Below are positions 32,732-61,213 of a DNA stretch of 64,000 nucleotides, in pieces. Where the stretch lies: the IMG/VR virus record IMGVR_UViG_3300017917_003379, one strand, 5' to 3'. The stretch comes from a virus. Every line of letters begins with the position of its first letter. The stretch's first letter is position 1. Position numbers and translations under genes: made by a program. The notes beneath the pieces are model-generated. The model was not told the origin of the DNA and searched no databases. It saw only the letters and a list, made by a program, of their open reading frames with translations.

Positions 32732-33232
32732 ATGGGATTAAGAATACCACAAAACCAAATAATAAAGAGCCAATATACTGCGGGAGGAGAGTATATGTTT
32801 GCTAATACCCAAAATGAATATCAAGGATACTATTATGAACTTAATGGGAAAAAATTTGCCGGTAAAGAATTTAACATTAATAACCCTGAAATAATAAGAA
32901 TAAACCCTAATAATTATAATAAACTATTAGGAAATGCATCTACTTATGTATATGGAACATTATCTAGAATAAAAATATCAGGTACTGATAGAATATTTTC
33001 TCTTCCTGTTAATAATTCTAATGCAACTTTAAACACTAAAGTTGATTTTTATTGTTGTAAAATAAATCAAAATCCCCTTATTATAAAAGCAATAAATGAA
33101 GAAACTTACATTTCACTTCAAAAAAACACACTATATAAAACAACATATGTAGGAACCTATAATAATATATATCAATCACTAGAAGATGCAGAAAAACAAA
33201 TTCCAGGCATGATATCTTTTCTAAGTTTATAG
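32732..33232 (+). CDS. Baseplate-module hypothetical protein
   Basis: YTAGGEYM..EYQGYYY N-terminus. Last gene of the structural block. Confidence 0.5.
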   Translation: MGLRIPQNQIIKSQYTAGGEYMFANTQNEYQGYYYELNGKKFAGKEFNINNPEIIRINPNNYNKLLGNASTYVYGTLSRIKISGTDRIFSLPVNNSNATLNTKVDFYCCKINQNPLIIKAINEETYISLQKNTLYKTTYVGTYNNIYQSLEDAEKQIPGMISFLSL

Positions 33233-33276: not shown

Positions 33277-34578
33277 ATGTTTTATGTAATTGAAAAACAA
33301 GAACAGTTATCACAACTGGGTTCTTTTAAGGATTGTTTTATTCGTTTTATTTCTCAAAATAATAATTTTCACCCTTATTTAAGTTTTCTTAGTTTAATTT
33401 ATATTCGTGATTTAAATGATCATAAAGGATACATTCTGTGTTTAGATCACAATGAATCATTTTCATTAGATAAACAACAAGTATTTGATTGGATTAATAA
33501 CAACACAGATAAACTGTGGGTGTTAAATAAAAAAGAAGCCATGTATTGGTTTTCTAATGAAAATAAATTATATGATATTAATTTTATTGAACAACCCAAT
33601 TTAAATGAAGCTTTAGATATACCTGCTATATCATTTTATTATAAACATCATATTAACAATCCAATAGTAAATAAACTAATTCCAATTAGTAAACATTATG
33701 AAGAAAGCGAAAACATATTTAACATTGTATTACCCATAATACAAAAGTACCGAGCAAATAACGTTATTTATGCATTTAATAACGGTCCTTTAACACGAGT
33801 TTTCCACGCAATTGAATCAAATGGTATTAAAGTAGACAAACAATGTTTTATTGATTGTTATGCTAATGAAATAAGATATCCTGAATTTAATCTTAAAAAA
33901 GGTAAAATATATAGTCAATATAATTTATACAACATAACTGGTAGACCTTCAAATACTTACAATAGCATTAATTTTGCAGCATTGAATAAGAATAATGGTG
34001 AAAGATTATGCTATAGACCAAATAATGAATCTTTCATAGAAATAGATATCCAGGGTTATCATCCCCGATTAATTGGTGAATTAGTTAATTTTAATTTTCC
34101 TAAAGATATAAATTGTTATGAATATTTAGGTAAATTATTAAATGTATCGCAACAAGAAGCTAAAGAATTAACTTTTAAACAACTATATGGTGGTGTTTGG
34201 AATGAATATAAAAATAAACCGTTTTTCAGAGATGTAGCAATGTATGTTGATGATTTATGGGATACTTTTCAACATCAAGGTTATATTGATACACAAAATA
34301 GACATTTTAAATGTTCTGAATTGCATGATATGACACCTGCTAAATTGTTAAATTATGTTATTCAAAGTTATGAAACTTCAAAAAATATTATAATAATTGA
34401 TAAAATATTGGATTTATTAAAAAATAAACAAACAAAATTAATATTATATACGTACGATGCATTTCTGTTTGATTATGCTAATAAAGATAAAAATATACTA
34501 CATCAAATACAAAACATCATACATTACCCAGTAAATATTAAACAAGGTACATCTTATCATGGTTTGAAAAAAATTTAA
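33277..34578 (+). CDS. Divergent family A DNA polymerase-fold protein
   Basis: TGRPS, motif A EIDIQGYHPRL, motif B AKELTFKQLYGG, NYVIQS, motif C YTYDAFLFD. Only 433 aa. Confidence 0.75.
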   Translation: MFYVIEKQEQLSQLGSFKDCFIRFISQNNNFHPYLSFLSLIYIRDLNDHKGYILCLDHNESFSLDKQQVFDWINNNTDKLWVLNKKEAMYWFSNENKLYDINFIEQPNLNEALDIPAISFYYKHHINNPIVNKLIPISKHYEESENIFNIVLPIIQKYRANNVIYAFNNGPLTRVFHAIESNGIKVDKQCFIDCYANEIRYPEFNLKKGKIYSQYNLYNITGRPSNTYNSINFAALNKNNGERLCYRPNNESFIEIDIQGYHPRLIGELVNFNFPKDINCYEYLGKLLNVSQQEAKELTFKQLYGGVWNEYKNKPFFRDVAMYVDDLWDTFQHQGYIDTQNRHFKCSELHDMTPAKLLNYVIQSYETSKNIIIIDKILDLLKNKQTKLILYTYDAFLFDYANKDKNILHQIQNIIHYPVNIKQGTSYHGLKKI

Positions 34579-34584
34579 ATATTT

Positions 34585-35007
34585 ATGGCTGAACTACTAA
34601 ATGACTTTTTAGACTTGAACAAACTATTTGCTACATTTACATCTCCTACTATGTTAGAAGAAACAGTAGTAGCCATTAATCGTAAATATTCAATATTATT
34701 CAATAAGATATTTATATTAGAATCACCACAAAGTGATGAACTAATATGCACCTATAATATTGACACAGGTAATATGGTTGCATCTCCTATGGCTAATACT
34801 ATATTATTACATCGTAAAAAAGACAGTAACACATTGTATACTATTAATGCATTAAACACATTAATTAAATCATTAAATAATGGTGTGTTAAATAAAAATT
34901 ATATAGTAAACTGGAATGATTATAAAAATTGTATATTATTAACCAGTGGTCCTGAGTTGCGCCGTTTGGATACAGCAATACATAAAATTATAGACTTTTC
35001 AAGATAA
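34585..35007 (+). CDS. Hypothetical protein
   Basis: NKLFATF, CTYNID, HRKKDSNTLYTINALN. Lies between the PolA-like gene and SSB. Confidence 0.6.
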   Translation: MAELLNDFLDLNKLFATFTSPTMLEETVVAINRKYSILFNKIFILESPQSDELICTYNIDTGNMVASPMANTILLHRKKDSNTLYTINALNTLIKSLNNGVLNKNYIVNWNDYKNCILLTSGPELRRLDTAIHKIIDFSR

Positions 35008-35096: not shown

Positions 35097-35912
35097 ATGG
35101 ATCTTTCATTGATCAAACAGAAACTGGCTATGAGCCAAAACAAAGGTGTTAAACGCGAAAAAGTAGATTACTCTAAAATTTTCTGGAAACCTAAACCTGG
35201 AAAATACCAAATTCGCATTCTTCCTTCAAAATTCGACAAAGCAAACCCATTCCGTGAAGTTTATTTCCATTACGGTTTCTCTAAGGGCCCAATTCTTGCT
35301 CTTACTAACTGGAATGAAAAAGACCCAATTGTAGAGTTTGCAAAAAATCTTCGTAAATCTTCAGATAAAGAAGATTGGCAGTTAGCTAAAAAAATTGAAC
35401 CTAAACTTCGCTATTTTGTTCCTGTATTAGTACGTGGTGAAGAATCACAAGGTGCTCGTTTATGGGAATTTGGTAAGCTAATTTATGAACAATTGTTAGG
35501 TATTGCTGCTGATGAAGATTATGGTGACTTTACAGACATTACTGATGGTCGTGATTTTACAATCGATGCTGTTGAAGATACAGTAGCAGGTAGAAAAGGA
35601 ATCAAATGTAATATTCGTATTAAACCAAAAACATCCCCTGTTTCCGAAGATGCTAGTTTAGTAACTAAAGCTCTAGAAGAACAACCCGACATTCTTACTA
35701 TTAATAAACATTATTCATTTGATGAATTAAAAGATTTATTAGATAAGTGGTTAAATCCTGAAGATGATACTGAAGAACCAATTGCATCTAAAGATGAAGA
35801 TGAAGAAGATGATTTCTTAGCTGACATCAATAAACCAGTAAAACAAACTTATAAACTTGATACATCTGCAGCTAAAACATCTGATGCTGATAAGTTTGAT
35901 GATTTATTCTAA
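35097..35912 (+). CDS. Single-stranded DNA-binding protein (gp32-like)
   Basis: FWKP..IRILP, LWEFGK, DITDGRDF. Acidic tail ending FDDLF. Confidence 0.8.
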   Translation: MDLSLIKQKLAMSQNKGVKREKVDYSKIFWKPKPGKYQIRILPSKFDKANPFREVYFHYGFSKGPILALTNWNEKDPIVEFAKNLRKSSDKEDWQLAKKIEPKLRYFVPVLVRGEESQGARLWEFGKLIYEQLLGIAADEDYGDFTDITDGRDFTIDAVEDTVAGRKGIKCNIRIKPKTSPVSEDASLVTKALEEQPDILTINKHYSFDELKDLLDKWLNPEDDTEEPIASKDEDEEDDFLADINKPVKQTYKLDTSAAKTSDADKFDDLF

Positions 35913-35928
35913 TAAATAAAATTAGTTT

Positions 35929-37032
35929 ATGGCGAAAAAAAATTCACTTAGTGAGGTAGTAAGTTCCTCATTAAAAGGGGGATTTGATTTAGATAAGTTT
36001 AAAAAATCTAAATTTCTAGATCAATCTTCTAAATTTAAAAAACAACGTTGGTTACCATTTTCACCAGCAATGCGCGATGCTCTTTCTATTCCTGGTGTTC
36101 CTCTAGGACATGTATTTGTAGCTCGTGGTGGTTCTGATACAGGTAAAACTACATTATTGATTGAAACAGCAGTAGAAGCCCAGAAAATGGGCATTCTACC
36201 TGTATTCATTATCACTGAAATGAAATGGGACTTTGCTCATGCTCAGAAAATGGGTTTTCAATGCGATGCAGTTCCAGATGAAAATACAGGAGAAGTAGTA
36301 AATTATACTGGTTTCTTCATTTATGCTGATAGAAGCAGTCTAAATACAATTGAAGATGTATCTGCGTTCATTGCTGATTTATTAAGCGAACAGAAAGCTG
36401 GTAAACTTCCTTTTGACTTATTGTTCCTTTGGGATTCTATTGGTTCTATACCATGTGAAATGAGTGTAAAACAAGGAAATAATAACCCAATGTGGAATGC
36501 TGGAGCAATGGCAACCCAATTTGGTAACTTTATCAATCAACAATTTCCTCTATCACGTAAAGAAACATCACCTTACACTAATACATTGTTTGTAATTAAC
36601 AAAACCGGTGTACAACCAGCATTAACTCCTATGAGTCAACCTCGTATGACTAATAAAGGTGGTAATACTATGTATTGGGATGCTACAATAGTAGCTACAT
36701 TTGGTAATGTAACTAATAGTGGTACTAGTAAAATTAGTGTACAACATAAGGGTAAAAAGGTTGAATTTGCTAAACGCACTAAGATTGCCATTGATAAAAT
36801 ACATGCCGATTATGGTATTGCTACTACATCAACAGTAATTGTTACACCTCATGGTTTCATTCCAGATACACCTGAAGCTATTAAAGAGTACAAGAAGAAA
36901 TATGCTCATGAATGGTTTAATGAACAAGTAGATGTAGCTGACTTAGTACAAATTGAAGACAATTCAGAATGGGAAGAAAGTAGTAAAATATCACCAATAG
37001 TAGAAATCGATAATGAAGGAAATGAAGAATAA
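35929..37032 (+). CDS. uvsX: RecA/UvsX-like recombinase
   Basis: GVPLG, Walker A GGSDTGKT, Walker B FLWDSIG, KGG. Acidic tail. Confidence 0.8.
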   Translation: MAKKNSLSEVVSSSLKGGFDLDKFKKSKFLDQSSKFKKQRWLPFSPAMRDALSIPGVPLGHVFVARGGSDTGKTTLLIETAVEAQKMGILPVFIITEMKWDFAHAQKMGFQCDAVPDENTGEVVNYTGFFIYADRSSLNTIEDVSAFIADLLSEQKAGKLPFDLLFLWDSIGSIPCEMSVKQGNNNPMWNAGAMATQFGNFINQQFPLSRKETSPYTNTLFVINKTGVQPALTPMSQPRMTNKGGNTMYWDATIVATFGNVTNSGTSKISVQHKGKKVEFAKRTKIAIDKIHADYGIATTSTVIVTPHGFIPDTPEAIKEYKKKYAHEWFNEQVDVADLVQIEDNSEWEESSKISPIVEIDNEGNEE

Positions 37033-38047
37033 ATACGCCTATCTATTATCTAAAGTCAACAATGATCAGCGTGGAGTCTTAGACTCCATTCTGATCATTG
37101 ACGGCTTAAATACATTTTTAAGGAGTTTCACAATGATTAATCATATTAATCCTGATGGAGCTCATATAGGTGGACTTACTGGTTTCCTTAAATCAGTTGG
37201 ATATGCTATTAAAATGATAGAACCAACTAAAGTAGTTATTGTATTTGATGGAGCAGGAGGATCAAACGCTAAGCGAAATTTATATCCTGAATATAAAGCA
37301 AATAGAAATAAAAGTCGTATGACTAACTATTCTATATTCAGCTCTAAAGATGAAGAAAACGAATCCATCAACAACCAAATGGCAAGGCTAATTCAATATC
37401 TTCAATGTATGCCCGTATCAATGATATGCGTAGATGGAATTGAAGCTGATGATGTTATAGGTTATCTAACAAATAAGTTAGAAAATTTTAAGACTACTAA
37501 GAAAGTCACTATAATGTCTGCAGACAAGGATTTCCTTCAGTTAGTATCTGATAAAGTTCAAGTATATTCTCCTGTCAAAAAGAAAATATACACACCAAAT
37601 GATGTACTAAATGAATTCGGAGTAAGCAGCAATAATTTTATTATATATAAAACATTAATGGGGGACAGTTCAGATAATTTGCCTGGAGTAAACGGTTTAG
37701 GGCCTAAAAAACTACTCAAATTATTCCCAACATTATCAACAAACACTCCTATAAGCTTATCCGATATAATTGCAAAATCAGAAAATAAAAAATCAGAACA
37801 TGATTTATATGCTCGCATAATTGAAAGAAAACAGCAATTAATAATTAATGATAAATTAATGAATTTAAAAAATATGCCTCTATCTGATGAGAATATGGAA
37901 CAAATTCAAAATGGTTTTAAAAATAGTTATGAGTTGAATTCATATGTGTTTATGCAAATGTATATCAATGACCATTTAGGTGAATCCATACCTAACACAC
38001 CAACATGGATAAATCAAGTTTTTGGACCTTTAAGTACTTTTAAGTAA
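37022..38047 (+). CDS. 5'-3' exonuclease / flap nuclease (T4 RNase H-like)
   Basis: IIDGLN, VFDG, YKANR, EADDVI, SADKDFLQL, GDSSDNLPGV..GPK. Confidence 0.92.
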   Translation: MKNKYAYLLSKVNNDQRGVLDSILIIDGLNTFLRSFTMINHINPDGAHIGGLTGFLKSVGYAIKMIEPTKVVIVFDGAGGSNAKRNLYPEYKANRNKSRMTNYSIFSSKDEENESINNQMARLIQYLQCMPVSMICVDGIEADDVIGYLTNKLENFKTTKKVTIMSADKDFLQLVSDKVQVYSPVKKKIYTPNDVLNEFGVSSNNFIIYKTLMGDSSDNLPGVNGLGPKKLLKLFPTLSTNTPISLSDIIAKSENKKSEHDLYARIIERKQQLIINDKLMNLKNMPLSDENMEQIQNGFKNSYELNSYVFMQMYINDHLGESIPNTPTWINQVFGPLSTFK

Positions 38048-38069: not shown

Positions 38070-39458
38070 TTGACTACTCTCTCAAAACTAAACGCATACG
38101 GCAATGCGTTTCAGGTTAAGGTATTAGGAGCATTATTAACACAACGTGAATTTCTTCTTAATATAGTAGATTCATTAGATAGTGAATACTTTGAATCTAG
38201 TGCTCATAAATGGGTAGTAGACTATATCATAAAATATTTCACTCAGTATCATACCTACCCTACTATTGAAACATTATCTATTGAAATTAAAAAAATTGAA
38301 AATGAAGTATTAAAAATATCTCTTACTGATGCTCTTCGTGAAGCATATAAGACTGCAGATGCAAGTGATCTAGAATGGGTTGAAAGAGAATTTAGTGATT
38401 TCTGTCGTAACCAACAGATGAAAAAAGCCATTATGACTTCAGTTGATCTACTTAATGTAGGTGATTATGATGGTATCCGTTCATTGATTAATGATGCAAT
38501 GAAAGCAGGTGAAGATAAAAATGTTGGTTTAGATTATAACGTAGATATCGAAACAAGATACCGTGATGATGATCGTCGTACTATTCCATTTCCTTGGAAA
38601 ACATTTAATGATCTTACACAAGGGGGATATGGTAAAGGTGATTTAGTATTATTGTTTGGAAATCCTGGCGGTGGTAAATCATGGGGAGTAATGGCTATGG
38701 GAGCATATGCTGCTGCTCTAGGATATAATGTAGTACATTACACATTAGAACTAGCAGAAGGATATGTAGGTAAACGATATGATGCTATTTTCTCAGGAAT
38801 AGATGTTGATAAATTAAAAGACCATCGTATTGAAGTAGAAGAAGCAGTTGCTAAAATAAAAGGTAAAATTGTAATTAAAGAATATCCTCCAAAACGAGCA
38901 TCTTTAGATACAATCGAATCTCATTTACAACAATTACAACATCAAAATGAATTCAAACCAGATTTAATTATAATTGATTATTTAGATCTATTACGTACTA
39001 AAGGTAGAAAAGAACGTAAAGATGAAATTGATGATGTTTACACTGATGCTAAGGGATTAGCTAAAGAATTAGGTATTCCTATTGTTTCTCCTTCACAAGC
39101 TAATAGAACAGGTGCTGATGAAGATATTTTACAAGCTAAAAATGCAGCTGGTTCATATGATAAAATTATGATTGGTGATATCATTATATCATTAGCTCGT
39201 GGACGTAAAGATAAAGTAAATGGAACGGGCAATTGGCATTTTATTAAAAACAGATATGGAGCTGATGGGCTAACATTTGGTTCTAAAATCAACACAGCAA
39301 ACGGATATATAGACATATATGAACAACCATTAGATGATGAAGCATTTGAAACCTCTACAAAAGGTAAAAATAAAAAAATAAATGACTACTCAGAAATAGG
39401 AGTAGAAGATAAATATATTCTTAGAAACAAATTTGCAAAATTTGAAGAGGGATCGTAA
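38070..39458 (+). CDS. Replicative DnaB-family helicase (gp41-like)
   Basis: GNPGGGKS, TLEL, IIDYLD, SQANR, KNRYG. Confidence 0.92.
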   Translation: MTTLSKLNAYGNAFQVKVLGALLTQREFLLNIVDSLDSEYFESSAHKWVVDYIIKYFTQYHTYPTIETLSIEIKKIENEVLKISLTDALREAYKTADASDLEWVEREFSDFCRNQQMKKAIMTSVDLLNVGDYDGIRSLINDAMKAGEDKNVGLDYNVDIETRYRDDDRRTIPFPWKTFNDLTQGGYGKGDLVLLFGNPGGGKSWGVMAMGAYAAALGYNVVHYTLELAEGYVGKRYDAIFSGIDVDKLKDHRIEVEEAVAKIKGKIVIKEYPPKRASLDTIESHLQQLQHQNEFKPDLIIIDYLDLLRTKGRKERKDEIDDVYTDAKGLAKELGIPIVSPSQANRTGADEDILQAKNAAGSYDKIMIGDIIISLARGRKDKVNGTGNWHFIKNRYGADGLTFGSKINTANGYIDIYEQPLDDEAFETSTKGKNKKINDYSEIGVEDKYILRNKFAKFEEGS

Positions 39459-44134: not shown

Positions 44135-44599
44135 ATGAGTAAATTTCAATCAACAAAAGTATTTGATGGGTACAGTACAGTATTTCGTCAATGGAAAGCA
44201 GAAGGTACACATTGTAAATACCTTCATGGCTATGGAGTGTCGTTTAAAGTATGGTTTGAAGGTGAATTAGATGAGAAAAATTGGGTTTGGGATTTTGGAG
44301 GAGCGAAACGTGCTAAAGGTAAAATTGATGATATGAACCCTAAAGAATGGATGGATTACATGTTTGACCATACTATGATTATTTCTGAAGATGATCCTTT
44401 CATTAATGCTTTTAAAGAAATGGATAAAGCAGGTGTGGCACAAATCCGTATTTTACCGGCAGTAGGTGCAGAGCAATTTGCTAAGTTTATTTTTGAAAAA
44501 TTAAATACATTTATTCAAGAAGAAACAAATAATCGAGTTAAAGTAGTTAGAGTAGAATTTATGGAACACAATAAAAATACAGCTATTTATGAAGGTTAG
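44135..44599 (+). CDS. queD: 6-carboxy-5,6,7,8-tetrahydropterin synthase
   Basis: HCKYLHGY, WVWDFG, FDH, AE, E..KNTA. Confidence 0.88.
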   Translation: MSKFQSTKVFDGYSTVFRQWKAEGTHCKYLHGYGVSFKVWFEGELDEKNWVWDFGGAKRAKGKIDDMNPKEWMDYMFDHTMIISEDDPFINAFKEMDKAGVAQIRILPAVGAEQFAKFIFEKLNTFIQEETNNRVKVVRVEFMEHNKNTAIYEG

Positions 44600-45374
44600 T
44601 CATGAACTCCCTCTTTCATTGATGCATTATAGTTATGAATTTAATGACTATGAATATTGTTTACCAATATTTTTAGATAAATATGAACAATATCGTTTGT
44701 TCTTTCAACGAGCTAGATTAGACAAGAGATTCATAATTATGGATAATTCTCTCTTTGAAGGTTATACCCATACAGTAGAAGATTTATTTGACAAAATATA
44801 CTTAATTCATCCTAGCATATTCATTGTACCTGATGAATGGAATAATTCAGCTGCTACTCTTAAAAATGCTAAACATTGGATGATAAATTACAAACAACAT
44901 CTGCCTAAAGAAACAGAATTAATGGCAGTATGTCAAGGTAATACCATGGGTGAATTGATCACAACATACCAAACATTAGTAGATTTAGGTTACAAACATA
45001 TTGCTTTCAACCATGCTAGCGCAGCATATACTAACTATTATCCTAATCATAGTAAATTATATGCTCAAATGTATGGTAGAATTGAATTAATCAGACAATT
45101 AGTTGAAACTAATACTGTTAGAAAAGATATATGGCATCATATGTTAGGAGCAAGTGATTGGCGTGAATTTCAAGCATATACTGAATTCGATTGGGTTAAA
45201 TCGATTGATACATCTGCTCCTATAATTAATGGGGCTTTAGGTGTAAAACTTAACCATGATGAACCATATGTTAAACCAGAAGCTAAATTAGAAAGCATTA
45301 TGGAAGTAGATCTTACAGATAAAATGGATATTATACAACATAATGTAGAATTATTTAGAAAAAGTATTAAATAA
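44589..45374 (+). CDS. TGT-fold protein, candidate DNA 7-deazaguanine transglycosylase (DpdA-like)
   Basis: IIMDNSLFE, FIVPD, MAVCQG, HHMLG and SIDTS follow the TGT-barrel motif order. Overlaps queD. Confidence 0.6.
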   Translation: MKVSHELPLSLMHYSYEFNDYEYCLPIFLDKYEQYRLFFQRARLDKRFIIMDNSLFEGYTHTVEDLFDKIYLIHPSIFIVPDEWNNSAATLKNAKHWMINYKQHLPKETELMAVCQGNTMGELITTYQTLVDLGYKHIAFNHASAAYTNYYPNHSKLYAQMYGRIELIRQLVETNTVRKDIWHHMLGASDWREFQAYTEFDWVKSIDTSAPIINGALGVKLNHDEPYVKPEAKLESIMEVDLTDKMDIIQHNVELFRKSIK

Positions 45375-45381
45375 TATTAGT

Positions 45382-45558
45382 ATGAGTAAATACGAACAAT
45401 TAATTAAAGAAAAAGAAGAAAAAAAACGTTTACAAGAATTAGCAAATGCAAAAGATGAACAAAAAGAAATAAGATCTGATATAAAAGGAATGATAGACTA
45501 ACTAGCTCAAAACTTTAAAAAAATTACAAATGAGTTATCAAAAAGAAGAAATGTATGA
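45382..45558 (+). pseudogene. Small coiled-coil ORF interrupted by an in-frame TAA (45499-45501)
   Basis: MSKYEQLIKEKEE..GMID*LAQNFKKITNELSKRRNV*. The helical pattern continues past the stop. Confidence 0.35.
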
Positions 45559-45618
45559 AACTTCATTTTGATAAGGCAAAATATCTTTAATATATTTATA
45601 TAAATTAAAATAAAAATT

Positions 45619-45900
45619 ATGTTATCGCTTTATGATTATCTAGGTCAAGCCGCTGGTAAGGAATTAGGACAACAAGTAGCAGAATATGCTAAAATTAGAA
45701 AAACAAAATGCAGTATGCGTTATGTTTCTAATCCTAAATATAAAGGAAATGTAATATTATACACTAAAGAATTCTTGGATGAGTATTTCGAAGTAAAAAA
45801 ACTATTTACAAAACCATATAATATTGACTATACTGAAATTAATACTCAGTTAATGGAAGATAGTATTAAACAACAACAAAATGAATTAGAAAATGCATAA
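45619..45900 (+). CDS. Hypothetical protein
   Basis: SLYDYLGQAAGKELG..YKGNVILY..FLDEYF. Has its own promoter and overlaps queC. Confidence 0.6.
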   Translation: MLSLYDYLGQAAGKELGQQVAEYAKIRKTKCSMRYVSNPKYKGNVILYTKEFLDEYFEVKKLFTKPYNIDYTEINTQLMEDSIKQQQNELENA

Positions 45901-46744
45901 TAAAAAACAAGCAGTACTTAGTCTTTCTGGTGGTATGGATTCAAGTACTTTACTACTCCATCTACTTGCTAATGGTTATGAAGTTACAGCATTATCATTT
46001 GATTATGGGCAAAAACATAAAGTTGAACTAGAACGAGCAAAAGATCTAGTAATGTATCTTAACCAACAATCAGGACCTAATGCCCTTATTAAACCTATAA
46101 CTCACCAAATAATTAAAATTGATGGTTTACAACAATTACTTAATTCAGCATTAGTTGAAGGTGGTAAAGATGTTCCTGAAGGACATTACGAACAAAATAA
46201 TATGAAAGAAACTGTTGTTCCTAATCGTAATAAGATTTTTAGTTCTATTATTCAAGCAGTAGCATTATCAATTGCTACTAAAGATGAAAAACAAGAAGTA
46301 GATATTGCGTTAGGTATTCATGCTGGTGACCATGCAATTTATCCTGACTGTAGACAAGAATTTAGAGATGCTGATATGGAAGCATTTAGAATTGGTAACT
46401 GGGATTCTGAACTAATTAAATTCTATACTCCTTATTTACATGCTGATAAATTTGGTATTTTAGAAGATGGTTTAAAAGCATGTGAGAAATTAAATTTAGA
46501 CTTTAATGAAGTATATAAACGTACTAATACATCTTATAAGCCAATTCAATTACAAGTAGGAAATTATTTAAATAATCTACAATGGTTTTCTGATTATAAA
46601 TCAGCAGCATCAGTAGAACGTATTGAAGCATTTATTAAACTAGGACGTCCTGATCCTGTAGCATACGCTGATGAAACAGGACCTGTGAGTTGGGAAGTAG
46701 CTAAAGCACACGTAGAAAAAGTTTTAGCTGAACATCAAAAGTAA
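45893..46744 (+). CDS. queC: 7-cyano-7-deazaguanine (preQ0) synthase
   Basis: SLSGGMDS, FDYGQKH, VPNRN, HAGDHAIYPDCR. C-terminal Zn cysteines are absent. Confidence 0.92.
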   Translation: MHNKKQAVLSLSGGMDSSTLLLHLLANGYEVTALSFDYGQKHKVELERAKDLVMYLNQQSGPNALIKPITHQIIKIDGLQQLLNSALVEGGKDVPEGHYEQNNMKETVVPNRNKIFSSIIQAVALSIATKDEKQEVDIALGIHAGDHAIYPDCRQEFRDADMEAFRIGNWDSELIKFYTPYLHADKFGILEDGLKACEKLNLDFNEVYKRTNTSYKPIQLQVGNYLNNLQWFSDYKSAASVERIEAFIKLGRPDPVAYADETGPVSWEVAKAHVEKVLAEHQK

Positions 46745-46796
46745 GAAGGCAAAATAAAGATATTATCTTTAAGTAAACAAAAAACAATATATAGTT

Positions 46797-47033
46797 ATGA
46801 GTTATCAAACAAACGTTCGTGCAAATTACATGAACAAGACAGCAAAATTGGCATTTTACAATGCTCGCAAGCGTGAAGGTGATACTGCTCGCCTTGCAGA
46901 AGAAACAGGTTACACCACCCGTTTTATTAATTATGTGAAGCGTGGTGAACGTAGTGTAAATGATACTGTTGCTAATGCAATGTATAATCTCGCTCGTCGC
47001 CGCACTAAAATGAACAAATTAGCTAATGCCTAA
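46797..47033 (+). CDS. Small basic HTH DNA-binding protein
   Basis: DTARLAEETGYTTRFINYVKRGER helix-turn-helix pattern. Own promoter and terminator. Confidence 0.65.
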   Translation: MSYQTNVRANYMNKTAKLAFYNARKREGDTARLAEETGYTTRFINYVKRGERSVNDTVANAMYNLARRRTKMNKLANA

Positions 47034-47040
47034 TTTATTG

Positions 47041-47072
47041 ACATCCCCCGAAAGGGGGATGTTTTACTTTTT
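47041..47072 (+). terminator. Intrinsic terminator with GAAA tetraloop
   Basis: acatccccc-gaaa-gggggatgt then a T-rich tail. Confidence 0.85.
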
Positions 47073-47084
47073 AAAACTAAAAAC

Positions 47085-47309
47085 ATGAAGTGTATTAAAA
47101 ATATAAAAACTGGAGAAATTGTTAGGGTTGAAGATAAATTGGCTCACCAAACTGTAGGTATTACTTGGCAATATATTTCTAAATCTGAATGGAAAGCAGC
47201 CACTAGAGTAGTAACTGAAAAACAAGAAGTAGAAGCTGAAAAGAAAGAAAAAACTGTGAGTGAAAAGGCTGTTAAACGTTCTAAACTTAAATCAAAACAA
47301 AGAAAATAA
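47085..47309 (+). CDS. Hypothetical protein
   Basis: 74-aa basic ORF with KTGEIVRV..WQYISKSEWK. Confidence 0.55.
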   Translation: MKCIKNIKTGEIVRVEDKLAHQTVGITWQYISKSEWKAATRVVTEKQEVEAEKKEKTVSEKAVKRSKLKSKQRK

Positions 47310-47310
47310 T

Positions 47311-47874
47311 ATGATTCAGTTACCTATAGCTAAAGAAAGAAACTTATACTTAGCTAAACAAGTCGATCAAGCATCCATTAATGAAATCAGTAAGGAGATT
47401 ATTGATATAAATCAAAACGATGATTATTTAGGAAAACTAGCTGAACTTCACGGAATGAAATATACGCCGAAACCGATTAAACTCTATATCGATTCATACG
47501 GTGGTTATGTATATCAGTGCTTAGGACTGTTAGGGATTATTGATAAGTCGGTAGTACCCGTTCATACGATCGTAACAGGTGCTGCTATGAGCTGTGGATT
47601 TCTTATAGCAATTACCGGGCATAGACGTTTTGCATATGACAATGCAACACACATGTATCACCAAGTTAGTTCTGTTATGTGGGGTAAGTTAAAAGATATG
47701 GAAGAAGATCTTGAAGAAACCAAACGCCTACAGTCTCTAATTGAAGAACATACTTTATCCCGTACTAAGATGACTAGAGAAATGCTTGAAAAAAATTATA
47801 AGAGTAAGAAAGATTGGTTTATTAATACCAAGCAAGCTTTGAAACTAGGTATTATAGATGAAATTATAAAATAA
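47311..47874 (+). CDS. clpP: ClpP-family serine protease
   Basis: IDSYGG, AMSCG (Ser), MYHQ (His), KDWF (Asp), ALKLGIIDEI. Confidence 0.85.
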   Translation: MIQLPIAKERNLYLAKQVDQASINEISKEIIDINQNDDYLGKLAELHGMKYTPKPIKLYIDSYGGYVYQCLGLLGIIDKSVVPVHTIVTGAAMSCGFLIAITGHRRFAYDNATHMYHQVSSVMWGKLKDMEEDLEETKRLQSLIEEHTLSRTKMTREMLEKNYKSKKDWFINTKQALKLGIIDEIIK

Positions 47875-47879
47875 ATAAT

Positions 47880-48761
47880 ATGAGTAAAATAGATCCAAAC
47901 AAGTTATTAATTAGTAGTGATTTCTACAGCATCCAAGGTGAAGGAAAAAGTAGTGGTATTCCATCATACTTTGTACGCCTTGGCATCTGCAATCTTACTT
48001 GCGGTATGAGTAGAGTATTTGCTAATAAATTAGCTAAAGAACAAACATTAGAAGACGGGGAAATATTTGTAGGTGATTTACATGCTGAAGGTAAAGCAAC
48101 TTGGACTTGTGATTCTACAAGTCAGTGGTTATGGAGAGGTGAAGATAAAGAGTTTCAATATTTGATTGATCGTTGGAAAGAACAAGGTATCTATGAAGAT
48201 ATTAGAGATGGTATAATCCATATCATTTGGACTGGTGGTGAACCTACAATTAAAGGACACCAGGAAGCAATTGTGAATTTCCATAAGTATTGGAAGTCAG
48301 TAGATCCAGAAATTGATTTATATGATTTTGATGATCCTGAATATAATCCATTAAATGCTCATGGAATGTTTTATAATGAAATAGAAACTAATGGTACTGT
48401 TCATATTGAGGATAGTTTATTTTTATTGTTAAATCAAATTAACTGCTCACCAAAGCTATCCAACTCAGGTATGACTGAAAAACAACGTATTGTACCTGCT
48501 GCTATTAAGCGCATTATGGAACATAGTAATTACCAATTCAAATTTGTTATCAGTACAGAAGATGATGTTAAAGAATTATTCCGTGACTTTGTAGAACCAT
48601 TTAATATCCCACTCAAAAACGTTGTTTGCATGCCAGGATTAGATGATGTAGCTAATTTTGAAGAACGTACTCAATTCTGTCTTGAAATGGGGAAGAAATA
48701 TAAGTTTAGGGCCCTTACACGGCTGCACATAGCAGCGTGGAATAAAACATTAAACGTATAA
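47880..48761 (+). CDS. queE: 7-carboxy-7-deazaguanine synthase (radical SAM)
   Basis: FYSIQGEG, FVRLGICNLTC..WTCDS, TGGEP, IETNGT, SPKL, FKFVI, RLH. Confidence 0.9.
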   Translation: MSKIDPNKLLISSDFYSIQGEGKSSGIPSYFVRLGICNLTCGMSRVFANKLAKEQTLEDGEIFVGDLHAEGKATWTCDSTSQWLWRGEDKEFQYLIDRWKEQGIYEDIRDGIIHIIWTGGEPTIKGHQEAIVNFHKYWKSVDPEIDLYDFDDPEYNPLNAHGMFYNEIETNGTVHIEDSLFLLLNQINCSPKLSNSGMTEKQRIVPAAIKRIMEHSNYQFKFVISTEDDVKELFRDFVEPFNIPLKNVVCMPGLDDVANFEERTQFCLEMGKKYKFRALTRLHIAAWNKTLNV

Positions 48762-48957
48762 GTTATGAGTAAAGAAGAAAAAGAAGAAATACTAAGAATA
48801 TCTAAACATTTACAAGAACTAAAAGATTGGTTAGATGACCAACCTGGACATCCTACTCATTTAAGTAACTTACCAACTTGGTTTTGGGAAACATGGGGTG
48901 AATGTATTGAAGACTTAAAATACTTAACTAAATAAAACATTAAATGTATAAGTTATG
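48741..48957 (+). repeat. 27-bp direct repeat (48741-48767 and 48931-48957) flanking a small ORF
   Basis: aataaaacattaaa[c/t]gtataagttatg, one mismatch. Confidence 0.88.
48765..48935 (+). CDS. 56-aa hypothetical protein (not in the ORF track)
   Basis: MSKEEKEEILRISKHLQELKDWLDDQPGHPTHLSNLPTWFWETWGECIEDLKYLTK. Confidence 0.55.
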   Translation: MSKEEKEEILRISKHLQELKDWLDDQPGHPTHLSNLPTWFWETWGECIEDLKYLTK

Positions 48958-49028
48958 GCTGAAATATGGTATAGAATAGTTTACATTCCCTTTATATATA
49001 AATTAATAAAGCATTAATTATATAGAAT

Positions 49029-49208
49029 ATGTTAGATCTTTTAGAAAAACGTATTATTAAAATACTTAAAAACAATAAAGTAAGTAATAACCACATAGAG
49101 ATGTATATAGATGATATCTTTTCATTTAATAATAAAGAACTATATGAACAAGTAGACGACGAAGATATCGTATATGGATTTAATAAATGGTTAGGAGAGC
49201 AAAAATAA
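49029..49208 (+). CDS. 59-aa hypothetical protein (not in the ORF track)
   Basis: MLDLLEKRIIKILKNN..FNKWLGEQK fills the gap before folE. Confidence 0.5.
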   Translation: MLDLLEKRIIKILKNNKVSNNHIEMYIDDIFSFNNKELYEQVDDEDIVYGFNKWLGEQK

Positions 49209-49226
49209 AAATCGTATATTTAAAAT

Positions 49227-49952
49227 ATGGAAAATAAACGTAGAAAAATAACAAATGCTGAAACACTAGAAACAGCACAACCTGGATTTGCAAATGGAAT
49301 TTCAATCCAGCTCCAAACATTACTAAATAATGGAGAACACCGTTCATTAAATCATCAGGAAAAACTAATGATTATTGAAAATGCTGAGAAAGCATATGGT
49401 GATTTCCTTACAGCATTGGGTGTTGATTGGCGAAATGATCCCAACAGTATGGAAACACCTCGTCGTGTAGCTAAGGCCTATGTTTTAGATTTATGGAAAG
49501 GAAGATATGAACTACCAAGTGATATTACAGCATTTCCATCTGATGGTTATAAGGGAATTGTATTAGAAAGAGATATTCCTATTGTTAGTATGTGTTCACA
49601 TCACCATCAATCTATTTTAGGTAAAACACATATTGCTTATATACCTGGTGAAGATGGTAAAGTAGTAGGTTTAAGTAAATTAAATCGTATTGTAGAACAC
49701 TTTGCTCGTAGAGGTGCTATCCAAGAACAACTTACAGTTGCTATTCATAATGCTATTCAAGCTGTAGCTGAAACTGAAAATGTAATGGTAGTAGTACATT
49801 CATACCATAACTGTGTATCATGTAGAGGTGTAAAACACTTTGGTGCTAGTATGGTAACAAGTGAAGTATCAGGTGTATTTGCTGATCATACTAAAACAGC
49901 TAAAATGGAAGTAATTGAAATGTTAAAATTAAATATGGAGGGATATAAATAA
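49227..49952 (+). CDS. folE: GTP cyclohydrolase I
   Basis: ETPRRVAK, SMCSHH, GLSKLNR, QEQLT, HNCVSCRGV. Confidence 0.93.
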   Translation: MENKRRKITNAETLETAQPGFANGISIQLQTLLNNGEHRSLNHQEKLMIIENAEKAYGDFLTALGVDWRNDPNSMETPRRVAKAYVLDLWKGRYELPSDITAFPSDGYKGIVLERDIPIVSMCSHHHQSILGKTHIAYIPGEDGKVVGLSKLNRIVEHFARRGAIQEQLTVAIHNAIQAVAETENVMVVVHSYHNCVSCRGVKHFGASMVTSEVSGVFADHTKTAKMEVIEMLKLNMEGYK

Positions 49953-51185: not shown

Positions 51186-53762
51186 ATGTACCAAGCAATT
51201 TATTATGATCGCTCTACTTATACTTATCATCTTCGTGATGATGAAAAAGGTTGGTTAGACTTTAAATACACTCCAGAATTATATCAAATAGTACCTAATG
51301 GTCCTTTAGAAACATTAGATGGTAAACGTGCTATTCCCGTTGAAAAATATAATTGGAAAGATACTTCATTATATGAACAAGATGTAGATAAATGTACTCG
51401 CGTATTAATTGACCTATATAAAGATGGTGATGATACTCCCAAACATCATAATATAGTTTATTTCGATATTGAGTGTGAAATTGGTGGAACACTAACTACT
51501 GAATACATTAAGTCAGCTCCTATGAAAATGACTTCAGTAGCAGTGTATGATAATACAACTCAAAAATATTACTGTTTAATTCTAGATGAAAAACAACAAA
51601 TTAAACCAGTAAATGGAGATAAGGAAATTAGACCATATAAGACAGAAGCGGAAATGCTATCTGCTTTTCTTGATTTATGGGAAGAATTAGACCCAACTAT
51701 CATTACAGGATGGAATAGTGGGTTCTTCGATATACCTTACATGTATTATAGATTATGTAATGTGTTAGGTAGAACACAAGCAGAACGTTTATCTCCTCTT
51801 CGTAAATTTAATTTTACCGAATGGGATCAATCACAACCAATAGAAATAGGTGGTATAAATCATTTAGATTACATGTTGCTGTTTAAGAAATATGTAATGA
51901 AACAAGAACCATCTTACCGTTTAGGTGATATCGGTGAAAAATATGTTAAGTTAGGTAAGATAGAATATGATGGTTCGTTAGATACATTATTTAAAAACGA
52001 TATAAAAACGTTTATAGAATATAACTTGCGAGATGTAGAAATTATTATTGAGTTAGAAAAGAAACTAAAATTTATTGATCTAACAGTTGCTATTTGTCAC
52101 TTATGTCATGTGCCTTATGAACAAATATACCAATCAACTGTATTGAATGATGGAGCTATATTAACATATCTTAAACGCCAAAATATAGTTTCACCTAATA
52201 AACCAACCACTTATAACCCAGCCTTAAAAGAACGTACAGAAAATGATTATGCTGGAGGTTATCTTAAAGATCCAATACCGGGGCTATATCAATGGGTTAT
52301 TGATTTAGATTTTACTTCACTATATCCTTCAATTATACGTTCACTCAATATTGGTATTGAAACCTTTATAGGTAGAGTAGTTAATAACGGTAAATATGAT
52401 AATCAGTGGACATATAATGAAATGAAAAATATGGATCCAAATGATTTAGTAACAATTGAAAAATTAAATGAAGATTATACTACATCTAGAACACAAGTAC
52501 ATATTGGTAAATTAGTTAAATTAATTGAAAATAATAATTGGATTACTGCAGCATCTGGTGCTATATTTCGAACAGATAAATCATCTGTAGTATGTGAAGT
52601 ATTAACTGATTGGTTTAATAAACGTGTTGAATATAAAAGTCTAATGAAAAAAGCATATAAAGCTGGTGATAAAGTTAAAGGCGAATTTTATGATAGACGA
52701 CAACATGCGTATAAAATTAAATTAAATGACGTTTATGGTTGCTATGCTATTAATGGTTGGAGATATACAGACGGTCATAAAATAATATCATCTGCTATTA
52801 CACTTACGGGCCAACGTTTGCTACAAGAAAGTATAGCTAATATGAATAAACATATAAACAAATTATTAAACACTAAAGATAAAGACTACATTATCACATC
52901 AGATACTGATTCATTGTTCATTCAAGTAAAAGACATATTAATAGCTAGAGGAGTTGATTTAACTAATAAAAAAGAATGCGTTAAAACAACACTAGAAATA
53001 GCATCAGAATTACAAAAAGTAGCTAATGAATTTATAGGTCAATTTGCAATGAATTCACTTCATATTCCTCATAATCGTCAACATTATTTTGAATTAAAAC
53101 AAGAAGTAGTAATTGAAAGAAGTTACCATTCAGGTAAACGTCGATATGCTATGATGATTGTGAATAAAGAAGGAGTTGATACTGAAGAGATGATTATGAT
53201 GGGATTAGATTTGATGAAATCAAATATGCCCCCTTTGTATAAAAACTTTGGACAAAATCTATTAGTAGAAATAATGTCCGGTAAATCTAAAGCAGAAATT
53301 GATAAACAAATAATAGATTTTAAATTATTATTAAATAATATAGATTGGACAGAATTAGCCAAACCAACAGGAGTTAAACAAATAAATTCATACATTGCTA
53401 AACGCCCAGCACCTGGTGAAATATTTAGTGAATTTAAATTAAAAGCACCAGTCAATACTAAAGCAGCAGTATATTATAATGATTTACTCAAATTTAAAAA
53501 ACTTGATAAAAAATATTCAATGTTTACAGAAGGTAGTAAAATGAAATATGTTTCATTAAAGCCTAATCCTTACAACATTGACGTATTAGGATTTACAGGG
53601 TACGAAGACCCAGAGTATATTAAAGAATTTATTGAAAAATATATAGATAGAGACGAAGCCTTTAATTCAATATTGCTAAATAAATTACAAGGTATGTATG
53701 AAGATATAGGATGGGAATTTCCAGTATTGAATGCAAAAATAAACAAATTTTTTCGGTTTTGA
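51186..53762 (+). CDS. Family B DNA polymerase (gp43-like)
   Basis: Exonuclease FDIE, GWN..FDIPY and YNLRDV. Polymerase DFTSLYPSII, KIKLNDVYG, DTDS and KRRY. Confidence 0.95.
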   Translation: MYQAIYYDRSTYTYHLRDDEKGWLDFKYTPELYQIVPNGPLETLDGKRAIPVEKYNWKDTSLYEQDVDKCTRVLIDLYKDGDDTPKHHNIVYFDIECEIGGTLTTEYIKSAPMKMTSVAVYDNTTQKYYCLILDEKQQIKPVNGDKEIRPYKTEAEMLSAFLDLWEELDPTIITGWNSGFFDIPYMYYRLCNVLGRTQAERLSPLRKFNFTEWDQSQPIEIGGINHLDYMLLFKKYVMKQEPSYRLGDIGEKYVKLGKIEYDGSLDTLFKNDIKTFIEYNLRDVEIIIELEKKLKFIDLTVAICHLCHVPYEQIYQSTVLNDGAILTYLKRQNIVSPNKPTTYNPALKERTENDYAGGYLKDPIPGLYQWVIDLDFTSLYPSIIRSLNIGIETFIGRVVNNGKYDNQWTYNEMKNMDPNDLVTIEKLNEDYTTSRTQVHIGKLVKLIENNNWITAASGAIFRTDKSSVVCEVLTDWFNKRVEYKSLMKKAYKAGDKVKGEFYDRRQHAYKIKLNDVYGCYAINGWRYTDGHKIISSAITLTGQRLLQESIANMNKHINKLLNTKDKDYIITSDTDSLFIQVKDILIARGVDLTNKKECVKTTLEIASELQKVANEFIGQFAMNSLHIPHNRQHYFELKQEVVIERSYHSGKRRYAMMIVNKEGVDTEEMIMMGLDLMKSNMPPLYKNFGQNLLVEIMSGKSKAEIDKQIIDFKLLLNNIDWTELAKPTGVKQINSYIAKRPAPGEIFSEFKLKAPVNTKAAVYYNDLLKFKKLDKKYSMFTEGSKMKYVSLKPNPYNIDVLGFTGYEDPEYIKEFIEKYIDRDEAFNSILLNKLQGMYEDIGWEFPVLNAKINKFFRF

Positions 53763-54368: not shown

Positions 54369-55094
54369 ATGAAAAAATTATATTTCAAAGACGTTATTGA
54401 AAAATACCATCTTGGTGGTTTAGTAGAGCGTGTTAAAATCAATATTGTTGATAAAACACTTATTACTAAATTTATTTCAAGTCAAAAAAATCTAGTAGGT
54501 GTACTTGAAGCTCCTAATATTGAATTAGATGATTGTGAATTTGGTATATATGATACAACTCAACTTCTTAAATTAATTAATATTACTGATAATTTCTTAA
54601 TATTGGGAATTGAAAAACGAGGTAATATAGCTAACAAACTTACTATCGCAGATAATGAATATAATTTAGAATACGCTTTAGCAGACATAATGCTAACACC
54701 AGCAGTACCAAATATCGATGAACCAAACTATCAAATGGTTGCTAATATCAGCTCAGAATTTATTAATAAATTTCTCAAAGCAGGTAAAGCACTAGGTACT
54801 GATGTATTTACTATTGAACAATCTCGTGATGTAGATGATAATCAAGCTATTAAATTTACATTAGGTGGTACTGAAGGGCATACAAATAAAATTAACTTTA
54901 CATTACAAACAACATTATCTAGCATTCCCGGCCATGTTGTTAAATTTCCATTACAAGAATTTAGTGAAATATTAGCAGCTAATAAAACATTTAAATCAGG
55001 AATGTTAAGTGTTAATGAAGAAGGGTTACTTAAAATCGACTTTGAAAATGAAGAAGGTGTTAAAGTAACATATTTATTAGTAGGTAAAGAATAA
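54369..55094 (+). CDS. Sliding clamp (gp45-like)
   Basis: EFGIYDTTQLLKLI and Y.LAD motifs. Size and position near PolB and the loader fit. Confidence 0.7.
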   Translation: MKKLYFKDVIEKYHLGGLVERVKINIVDKTLITKFISSQKNLVGVLEAPNIELDDCEFGIYDTTQLLKLINITDNFLILGIEKRGNIANKLTIADNEYNLEYALADIMLTPAVPNIDEPNYQMVANISSEFINKFLKAGKALGTDVFTIEQSRDVDDNQAIKFTLGGTEGHTNKINFTLQTTLSSIPGHVVKFPLQEFSEILAANKTFKSGMLSVNEEGLLKIDFENEEGVKVTYLLVGKE

Positions 55095-58233: not shown

Positions 58234-59166
58234 ATGAAAAAGCAACACACACTCTGGATTGAAAAATATCGTAGCCAAACTTTAGAACAATACATCGGAA
58301 ACGATGCGGTTAAAAACCGCATCTCCGATTGTATTGTTAAAAATGACATACCACATTTTATATTTAGTGGAACAGCAGGAACAGGTAAAACAACTTTAGC
58401 TAAACTAATAGTTAATAATATTAAATGTGATTATCTTTACCTTAATGCTTCTGATGAGAATGGCATTGATATGATTCGAGAAAAAGTAAAAGGATTTGCA
58501 TCTTCTGCTACATTTAATCCTATTAAAGTAGTAATATTAGATGAAGCTGATTTTCTTACTCAGCCTGCTCAGGCCGCTCTTCGCAACATTATTGAAGAAT
58601 ATTCAGCTACTACACGTTTTGTTTTAACATGTAACTATGTTGAGCGTTTAATTGAACCACTTACTTCACGTTGTGAAACTCATATTTTAAAACCACCATC
58701 AATGCCTGATGTAGCAAGACATATTTGTACAAATATATTAGATGTTGAAGGTGTAAAATATGATATTAAAAACATAGCGTTATTAATTAAAGAATATTAT
58801 CCTGATATTCGATCAATCATTAAATATCTTCAAGCAGGAGTTAAAGATGGTGAGTTTAAATGGATTGAACTTGACACTAATTGGTTTGTTAAAATTATTG
58901 AAGTATTAAAAAAACCAACTAAAAACAGTTGGGTAGAAATGCGACAAATAATTGCTGATGCTCAAGTAGATGACTATCAACCTCTAATAGAATACTTATT
59001 TGAAAATGTAGATAAATATGGCAAAGGAAATGAAGCAGAAATAATTATAGAATTAGATGAAGCTCAATATCGTTCTCGAGTAGTACCTGATAAAGAAATT
59101 AATATATCTTCTCTATTAGTTAAAATTCTACGAATATTAGAAAACAAAACATTAATAAAAGGATAA
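58234..59166 (+). CDS. Clamp loader AAA+ subunit (gp44/RFC-like)
   Basis: WIEKYR, GTAGTGKTT, NASDE, ILDEAD, SRC. Confidence 0.93.
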   Translation: MKKQHTLWIEKYRSQTLEQYIGNDAVKNRISDCIVKNDIPHFIFSGTAGTGKTTLAKLIVNNIKCDYLYLNASDENGIDMIREKVKGFASSATFNPIKVVILDEADFLTQPAQAALRNIIEEYSATTRFVLTCNYVERLIEPLTSRCETHILKPPSMPDVARHICTNILDVEGVKYDIKNIALLIKEYYPDIRSIIKYLQAGVKDGEFKWIELDTNWFVKIIEVLKKPTKNSWVEMRQIIADAQVDDYQPLIEYLFENVDKYGKGNEAEIIIELDEAQYRSRVVPDKEINISSLLVKILRILENKTLIKG

Positions 59167-61212: not shown

Positions 61213-61213
61213 A

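Follow-up and report, generated by a model that had tools for sequence, protein, structure and literature searches.

A member of the divPolA1 family with a histidine at the steric-gate position heads a conserved replication gene array in a virus genome of 155 kb

The described group closest to the protein of this study is divPolA1, a set of divergent family A DNA polymerases named by Yutin, Tolstoy, Mutz, Wolf, Krupovic and Koonin (Virol J 2024;21:200; PMC11348598). It was found in 14 phages of 155-190 kb around phage immuto, each of which has divPolA1 as a second PolA in addition to a regular polymerase from family A, B or C (PMC11348598). In divPolA1 the palm retains its catalytic residues; the thumb is shortened, and the exonuclease domain has other residues in place of its three catalytic aspartates. 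Conservation extends to the replication genes downstream, and GroEL and nucleotide-metabolism genes are located around the regular polymerase (PMC11348598). Here, a gene for a protein of 433 amino acids (aa) in the virus record IMGVR_UViG_3300017917_003379 of IMG/VR was identified as a further member of this published family. It is located at positions 33277 to 34578 of a stretch of 64,000 nucleotides (nt), referred to as the window, which corresponds to bases 63999-127998 of the 155,189-base record (genome G000; 93% complete). The window has a G+C content of ~30%, and its + strand holds nearly all genes. The polymerase gene and the elements recognized in it are:

33277..34578, + strand: divPolA1-type family A DNA polymerase, 433 aa (open reading frame (ORF), family profile, model, homology to immuto gp001)
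33277..33681, + strand: N-terminal 3′-5′ exonuclease-like domain, ~residues 1-135, without conserved catalytic carboxylates (structural alignment, column conservation)
33814..33921, + strand: thumb remnant, ~residues 180-215, from ESNGIKVD to the YNLY..TGRPSN motif (profile alignment, model)
34045..34068, + strand: motif A, DIQGYHPR, with the catalytic D257 and with H262 at the steric-gate position (Klenow E710) (translation, profile alignment)
34150..34191, + strand: motif B (O-helix), QQEAKELTFKQLYG, with K296, F300, Y304 and G305 kept and Q292 replacing R754 (translation, profile alignment)
34453..34461, + strand: motif C, YDA, with the catalytic D394; Y393 replaces H881 and A395 replaces E883 (translation, profile alignment)

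The protein is homologous to gp001 of immuto, which is annotated as 'DNA polymerase family A' and was found by tblastn against phage genomes (97% of the query, E 2e-57), although the two are only 34% identical. The family profile matched the same gp001 of Flavobacterium phage vB_FspM_immuto with an E-value of 9.3e-165. Both proteins are ~430 aa long and have a palm with the main catalytic residues, a shortened thumb and an inactivated exonuclease domain, and both genomes encode a regular polymerase elsewhere. The gene order in immuto (polymerase, small ORFs, single-strand DNA-binding protein (SSB), recombinase, 5′-3′ exonuclease, DnaB helicase) is identical to the order in the window, and this array was found to be conserved in 80 related loci and immuto. 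The genes for the flap endonuclease (FEN), SSB, UvsX and the helicase could be identified 3′ of the polymerase in 48 to 70 of these 80 loci, contig ends being the main limit. All features that characterize divPolA1, i.e., homology, a palm with the main catalytic residues, a truncated thumb, an inactivated exonuclease domain and the genomic setting, were thus found for the window protein. Yutin et al. list 14 phages, whereas the family identified here is far larger and also has members in a Microcystis phage and in a phage of 484 kb. A literature search revealed no later paper mentioning divPolA1.

The active-site motifs had already been read in a first-pass annotation, which was made by a model from the letters of the stretch. 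It reported DIQGYHPR with a His at the position of Klenow E710 for motif A, a kept K..F..YG with a Gln in place of the Arg four positions before the Lys for motif B, and YDA instead of HDE for motif C. All three readings are borne out, with motif B as K..F...YG, by the translation and by a profile of 61 diverse family members, which matched the Klenow fragment with an E-value of 3.4e-8. In this alignment D257 corresponds to D705, H262 to E710, Q292 to R754, K296 to K758, F300 to F762, Y304 to Y766, D394 to D882 and A395 to E883. The direct translation of positions 34447-34473 is YTYDAFLFD. The residues aligned to the DNA-contacting Klenow residues R668, R682 and Q849 are kept. E710 has been described as universally conserved in family A, where it acts as a steric gate against ribonucleotides (PMC3715850).

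For the analysis of family-wide conservation, 352 unique family sequences were used, which extend down to ~30% identity. The conservation of the gate residue, which the first-pass annotation had proposed to check, was found to be very high: position 262 is His in 347 sequences, Gln in 3 and Phe in 1, and Glu was never observed. The position following the motif C Asp (395) is occupied by Ser (178), Ala (165) or Gly (2), and by Glu in a single sequence. Position 292, which corresponds to R754, is mostly Y, T or Q, with an Arg in only 16 of the 352 sequences. The catalytic residues D257 (Asp in 351/352) and D394 (346/352) are almost fixed, as are K296 (Lys in 350/352), F300 (Phe in 341/352) and Y304 (Tyr in 345/352). 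R223, R243, Q363 and E366 are also near-invariant, and the most distant members aligned show the identical active-site pattern. Since the pattern is fixed across 352 unique sequences, the unusual active-site residues are real family-wide features and not the result of chance.

An AlphaFold2 model computed from the 61-member alignment has a mean predicted local distance difference test (pLDDT) score of 96.7. Its residues 1-430 could be superimposed on the large fragment of Bst Pol I with a Z-score of 25.8 (402 residues, root-mean-square deviation 4.2 Å). The alignment begins at model residue 1 and Bst residue 300, and about 405 model residues cover a span of 577 residues of the Bst chain. The comparison with Klenow resulted in a Z-score of 24.0 over 421 residues, in agreement with Foldseek. 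According to the model, the exonuclease-like and the polymerase domain both have the PolA fold, which makes the protein a Klenow-type enzyme with two domains.

The conserved positions of the N-terminal domain are H32, H58, K86, D100, N132 and P136. No DEDD-type carboxylate set was found in this domain; D100 is the only conserved acidic residue (54/61 sequences), as judged by column conservation. This is consistent with the first-pass annotation, which had seen no intact proofreading motifs. The exonuclease domains of Bst and Taq are inactive as well. For about 80 residues of the thumb (Klenow chain residues ~233-312) no counterpart was present in the profile alignment, and the thumb region of the model contains only the helices 163-182 and 188-195.

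The homology to polymerases was detectable only with the family profile or the structure. The Pfam models of the PolA family did not match the 433-aa protein at E-values up to 1, the PHROG scan yielded no usable match, and a single-sequence search of solved structures returned nothing relevant. In the profile search of solved structures only DNA polymerases were obtained, with no RNA polymerase among the matches, and the top 50 listed matches of each of two structure searches are DNA polymerases.

In comparison to the large fragment of Pol I (Klenow, Bst, Taq), the exonuclease-like and polymerase domains are shared (Z 24 to 26 over ~400 residues) and motifs A, B and C are kept. A FEN is also present in the phage, but is encoded by a separate gene. 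The window protein differs in being ~170 residues shorter, with the tip of the thumb gone, and in its His for E710, Ser/Ala for E883, Tyr for H881 and missing Arg at R754. Hence, among the features of a canonical family A enzyme, the Asp of motif A, the Asp of motif C and the Lys, Tyr and Gly of motif B are present; the match to a Pfam model, the gate Glu, the HDE of motif C and the Arg four positions before the O-helix Lys are absent.

T7-type RNA polymerases have a small gate residue, a Tyr at the position of F762, N-terminal domains for promoter binding and initiation, and a motif C of the form HDS, with a Ser after the Asp. The window protein has a His at the gate, F300 at the F762 position, a length of 433 aa and a Klenow-type N-terminal domain. 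The second divergent group, divPolA2 of the barbaviruses, is likewise a second PolA in genomes with a regular PolB, and lacks a canonical thumb and exonuclease activity (PMC11348598). It differs in its unrelated N-terminal globular domain, its variable gene neighborhood and its structural hits to RNA polymerases (PMC11348598), whereas in the window protein the N-terminal domain is of the Klenow type, the replication neighborhood is fixed and the top structure matches listed are DNA polymerases.

The first-pass annotation had noted that no DnaG-type primase occurs in the window and had suggested a primase as one possible job of the enzyme. The observation is correct for the window. However, a 312-aa primase of the gp61/DnaG type with a DnaG zinc ribbon was identified outside of it in the same genome (G000:C1:32385-33323). 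It matches phrog_47 ('DNA primase') with an E-value of 2.5e-44 and Aquifex DnaG (2au3) with 2.6e-7. The Toprim_4 and Toprim_2 models missed this gene, whereas the zinc-ribbon model and PHROG detected it. All 3 near-complete relatives tested have a homologue, and immuto contains a 314-aa frame with zinc ribbon and Toprim domain. The search for a Prim-Pol (AEP) domain gave no match in the genome. The zinc-ribbon/primase match belongs to a separate gene, and the 433-aa protein has the PolA fold. Since the genome and its relatives encode a separate primase, such a role is not needed for the divPolA1 gene, and the primase idea is weak; a conventional primase encoded elsewhere is half of what the first-pass annotation itself had named as speaking against it. 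The primase gene is directly followed by the gene for a 261-aa exonuclease (phrog_298, E 9.1e-40), and the pair (G000:C1:32385-34105, equivalent to L005:1435-3155) is located far from the main replication block.

The polymerase gene is the first of an array of replication genes, and a regular family B polymerase with its accessory proteins is encoded further downstream in the window:

34585..35007, + strand: p140, conserved 140-aa protein (downstream in 76/80 related loci)
35097..35912, + strand: gp32-type single-strand DNA-binding protein (PF08804, E 1.7e-13; phrog_1192)
35929..37032, + strand: UvsX/RecA-type recombinase (PF00154, E 5.9e-7; phrog_97, E 5.4e-14)
37013..38047, + strand: 5′-3′ exonuclease/flap endonuclease (FEN), like the N-terminal domain of Pol I (PF02739, E 2.4e-35; PF01367, E 2.4e-11)
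38070..39458, + strand: DnaB/gp41-type replicative helicase (PF03796, E 2e-19)
51186..53762, + strand: regular family B DNA polymerase (PolB) with exonuclease domain, probable replicase (PF00136, E 3.7e-31; PF03104, E 4.1e-19)
54369..55094, + strand: sliding clamp (phrog_223, DNA polymerase processivity factor, E 1.5e-7)
58234..59166, + strand: clamp-loader AAA+ subunit (PF00004, E 2.6e-16; PF13177, E 2e-11; Gp44 lid domain)

The gene for p140 was found 3′ of the polymerase gene in 76 of the 80 loci, and in 3 of the 4 exceptions the contig ends within the polymerase gene. Its start is located at most 15 nt from the polymerase stop in 73 of the 76 loci; the two genes overlap by a median of 12.5 nt. 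Between p140 and gp32 the spacer has a median length of 71 nt, and in 15 of 70 loci it is longer than 150 nt. In Microcystis phage Mel-JY01 p140 adjoins the polymerase, whereas in the 484-kb phage LR756508 two genes lie between them and p140 is next to gp32. With 60% identity to immuto gp002, p140 is far more conserved than the polymerase (34% to gp001). Its mean column identity is 51%, and it contains the invariant block TIL.HRKK..NTLYTINALN.LI..LN.G. From this gene order, p140 is probably a partner of the polymerase.

The model of p140 (pLDDT 88) has a ferredoxin-like N-terminal half. Pfam and PHROG scans gave no usable match for p140, its profile found nothing among solved structures, and a Foldseek search of the PDB resulted in no match at an E-value of 0.001 or better. 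The best Z-score in the wide VIA search was 5.9, to generic ferredoxin-like/ACT domains and over residues 4-79 only. In BFVD only an uncharacterized homologue was found; the template modeling (TM) scores in the atlas were below 0.5, and the feature search of the atlas gave no usable match. Ten fusions of p140 were discarded as evidence. They are singletons with varied neighbors (FEN, gp32, unrelated enzymes) that look like gene-calling run-throughs, and none consistently involves the polymerase.

UvsX, gp32 and a DnaB-type helicase are present without a detectable UvsY or gp59, the Pfam models of which had no match in five genomes (G000 and four relatives). The recombination mediator and the helicase loader may therefore be unrecognized proteins, with p140 as one candidate. 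Directly upstream of the polymerase gene a 166-aa ORF is located (32732-33232), which has homologues in 53 of the 80 related loci, mostly directly upstream as well, and a weak homologue in Mel-JY01; Pfam and PHROG scans yielded no match for it. Around the polymerase gene, promoter-like sites were fewer than in shuffled sequence and no terminator was found on the + strand; the scan did not include Bacteroidota-type promoters. IMG/VR classifies the genome as 'provirus', although the genes found here are those of a T4-like phage that encodes its own replisome.

The presence of PolB, clamp and clamp loader, stated in the first-pass annotation, is confirmed by the Pfam and PHROG matches listed above. 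The motifs FDIEC, SLYPS and DTDS are kept in PolB. Its C-terminal end reads NKFFRF, an aromatic tail that is putatively clamp-binding, of the kind found in T4-type polymerases. A gene for a GroEL-type chaperonin (PF00118, E 5e-64) is located at 56178-57809 between clamp and clamp loader. This position agrees with Yutin et al., who noted chaperonins together with the regular polymerase in these phages.

A complete-looking set of genes for 7-deazaguanine DNA modification was found at 44135-49952, consisting of QueD (44135-44599), a DpdA homologue (44589-45374; 29% identical to immuto DpdA, E 1e-35), QueC (45893-46744), QueE (47880-48761) and FolE (49227-49952). The DNA of the phage probably carries a 7-deazaguanine base. 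The same cluster contains a 204-aa protein (47260-47874) with matches to ClpP/S49-type 'head maturation protease' PHROGs (phrog_94, E 2.1e-28), located away from the structural genes. In addition, genes for an adenylosuccinate synthetase (61145-62218; 357 aa from a GTG start) and an adenylosuccinate lyase span 61145-63533. A PurZ-dependent 2-aminoadenine genome was considered and rejected: the PurA-like protein matches true adenylosuccinate synthetases with an E-value of 1.8e-57, and PurZ only with 3e-19 or weaker. By its sequence, it looks like an auxiliary purine gene and not part of a 2-aminoadenine pathway.

The explanation considered best, with moderate confidence, is that the divPolA1 protein of the window is an active accessory DNA polymerase beside a clamp-bound PolB replicase. 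It would be a miniaturized Klenow-type enzyme with a vestigial 3′-5′ exonuclease domain and almost no thumb, in which palm and fingers keep the residues for nucleotidyl transfer. Such an enzyme is expected to be primer- and template-dependent, to work distributively or with low processivity, and to lack proofreading. The simplest role would be that of a split Pol I, which together with the FEN encoded three genes downstream performs short-patch synthesis or gap filling in the maturation of Okazaki fragments. This role is suggested by the position of the polymerase gene, which is the first of an operon that also encodes SSB, UvsX, a Pol I-type 5′ nuclease and helicase. The enzyme may also, or instead, extend the intermediates that the adjacent UvsX and gp32 produce in recombination, and p140 probably works with it. 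The main replicase is probably PolB, which is intact and encoded beside clamp and clamp loader. The first-pass annotation had proposed a repurposed enzyme. A specialized second PolA agrees with this proposal and with the description of divPolA1, whereas the jobs it had named, a primase or work on modified DNA, fare less well.

Several points weigh against this explanation. No member of divPolA1 is known to have been assayed. The Pol I residues E710, E883 and R754 are all replaced, so that the activity could be low or altered, and with so short a thumb it is not obvious how the enzyme would grip duplex DNA. In some genomes the setting of divPolA1 resembles a replication locus more than the setting of the regular polymerase does (PMC11348598). 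Tight spacing is also common in the operon, with at most 15 nt between gp32 and UvsX in 55 of 65 loci and between UvsX and FEN in 50 of 57. Since these pairs are equally tight, the adjacency of p140 is weak evidence for a complex. As no homologue of UvsY or gp59 was detected, p140 could instead be an analogue of the mediator or the loader.

The replaced residues could also indicate that the polymerase is catalytically dead and serves the replisome or the recombination machinery as a subunit for DNA binding or scaffolding. The loss of the equivalents of E883, R754 and E710 and the truncation of the thumb would fit such a protein. However, both metal-binding Asp residues, the general-acid Lys, the Phe and Tyr of the O-helix and the equivalents of R668 and Q849 are near-invariant in the 352 sequences. 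Conservation of catalytic and DNA- or deoxynucleotide-contacting residues at this level is not expected once catalysis is lost and argues against a dead enzyme; Yutin et al. likewise hold that the enzyme is not dead (PMC11348598). This is regarded as the least probable of the explanations. Relaxed sugar selection, i.e., insertion of ribonucleotides, RNA synthesis, or a function in priming or in Pol alpha-like primer extension, is unlikely, but the active site provides some arguments for it. H262 replaces the Glu that blocks ribonucleotides in Klenow and is fixed in the whole family, and the Ser or Ala after the motif C Asp (Glu in just 1/352) recalls T7-type RNA polymerases. Yutin et al. consider an RNA polymerase possible in the case of divPolA2, the sister group, but do not extend this to divPolA1 (PMC11348598). 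On the other hand, a conventional gp61/DnaG-type primase is encoded here and in the relatives, F300 and Y304 are of the DNA polymerase type, and the matches among solved structures include no RNA polymerase. The protein comprises only 433 aa and lacks additional domains that could bind a promoter or initiate chains. Furthermore, a His is as bulky as a Glu and could still clash with the 2′-OH and bond to Y304.

The genomic context allows two further explanations. In one of them, the core replicase is divPolA1, possibly together with p140, and the exchangeable regular polymerase (A, B or C) is auxiliary. A strictly conserved module of replication genes begins with divPolA1, whereas the regular polymerase varies in its family and has a less replication-like context with GroEL and nucleotide metabolism (PMC11348598), which is also the case in the window. 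This arrangement is nevertheless improbable: divPolA1 has no proofreading, is almost thumbless and lacks a recognizable clamp-binding tail, whereas the intact PolB includes an exonuclease domain, carries the C-terminal NKFFRF and is encoded next to clamp and clamp loader. A genome of 155 kb is also unlikely to be copied by an enzyme that does not proofread. The other explanation, suggested in the first-pass annotation, is a specialist for DNA or nucleotides modified with 7-deazaguanine, and is very improbable. The FolE, QueD, QueE, QueC and DpdA genes of the window are in favor of it, as is the presence of QueC in 5 of 5 close relatives and in immuto; however, the co-occurrence in close relatives is confounded by shared descent. 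No QueC was found in Mel-JY01 (190 kb, complete) and in LR756508, both of which carry the polymerase and p140, and an obligate link was therefore rejected. In addition, DpdA is a DNA guanine transglycosylase that inserts the modified base after DNA synthesis, and no special polymerase is required.

An accessory polymerase beside PolB is therefore preferred here, and 'divPolA1-type accessory DNA polymerase', not primase, is proposed as the label of the gene. The text of Yutin et al. mentions neither the His at the steric gate nor sugar selection nor a small downstream gene. Three features appear to be absent from it: the fixed gate His, the combination of Ser/Ala with the lost Arg, and the conserved 140-aa neighbor. 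These additions to the published family are modest, and for the window the result is mostly one of annotation.

The family departs from a residue that has been regarded as universal in family A polymerases, and it is very abundant in aquatic viral metagenomes. Metagenomic relatives of ~430 aa form 3651 clusters at 90% identity, and 1051 representatives were obtained at 50% identity. The family was found on at least 589 viral contigs of IMG/VR, and the source names of the relatives, where given, are 'hypothetical protein'. A more far-reaching and rather doubtful idea is that divPolA1 and p140 form a two-subunit polymerase in which the His gate and the Ser/Ala of motif C alter sugar selection, resulting in a Pol alpha-like hand-off enzyme. 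If true, such an enzyme might extend RNA primers or insert ribonucleotides, and it could explain why the main replicase is swapped between families A, B and C.

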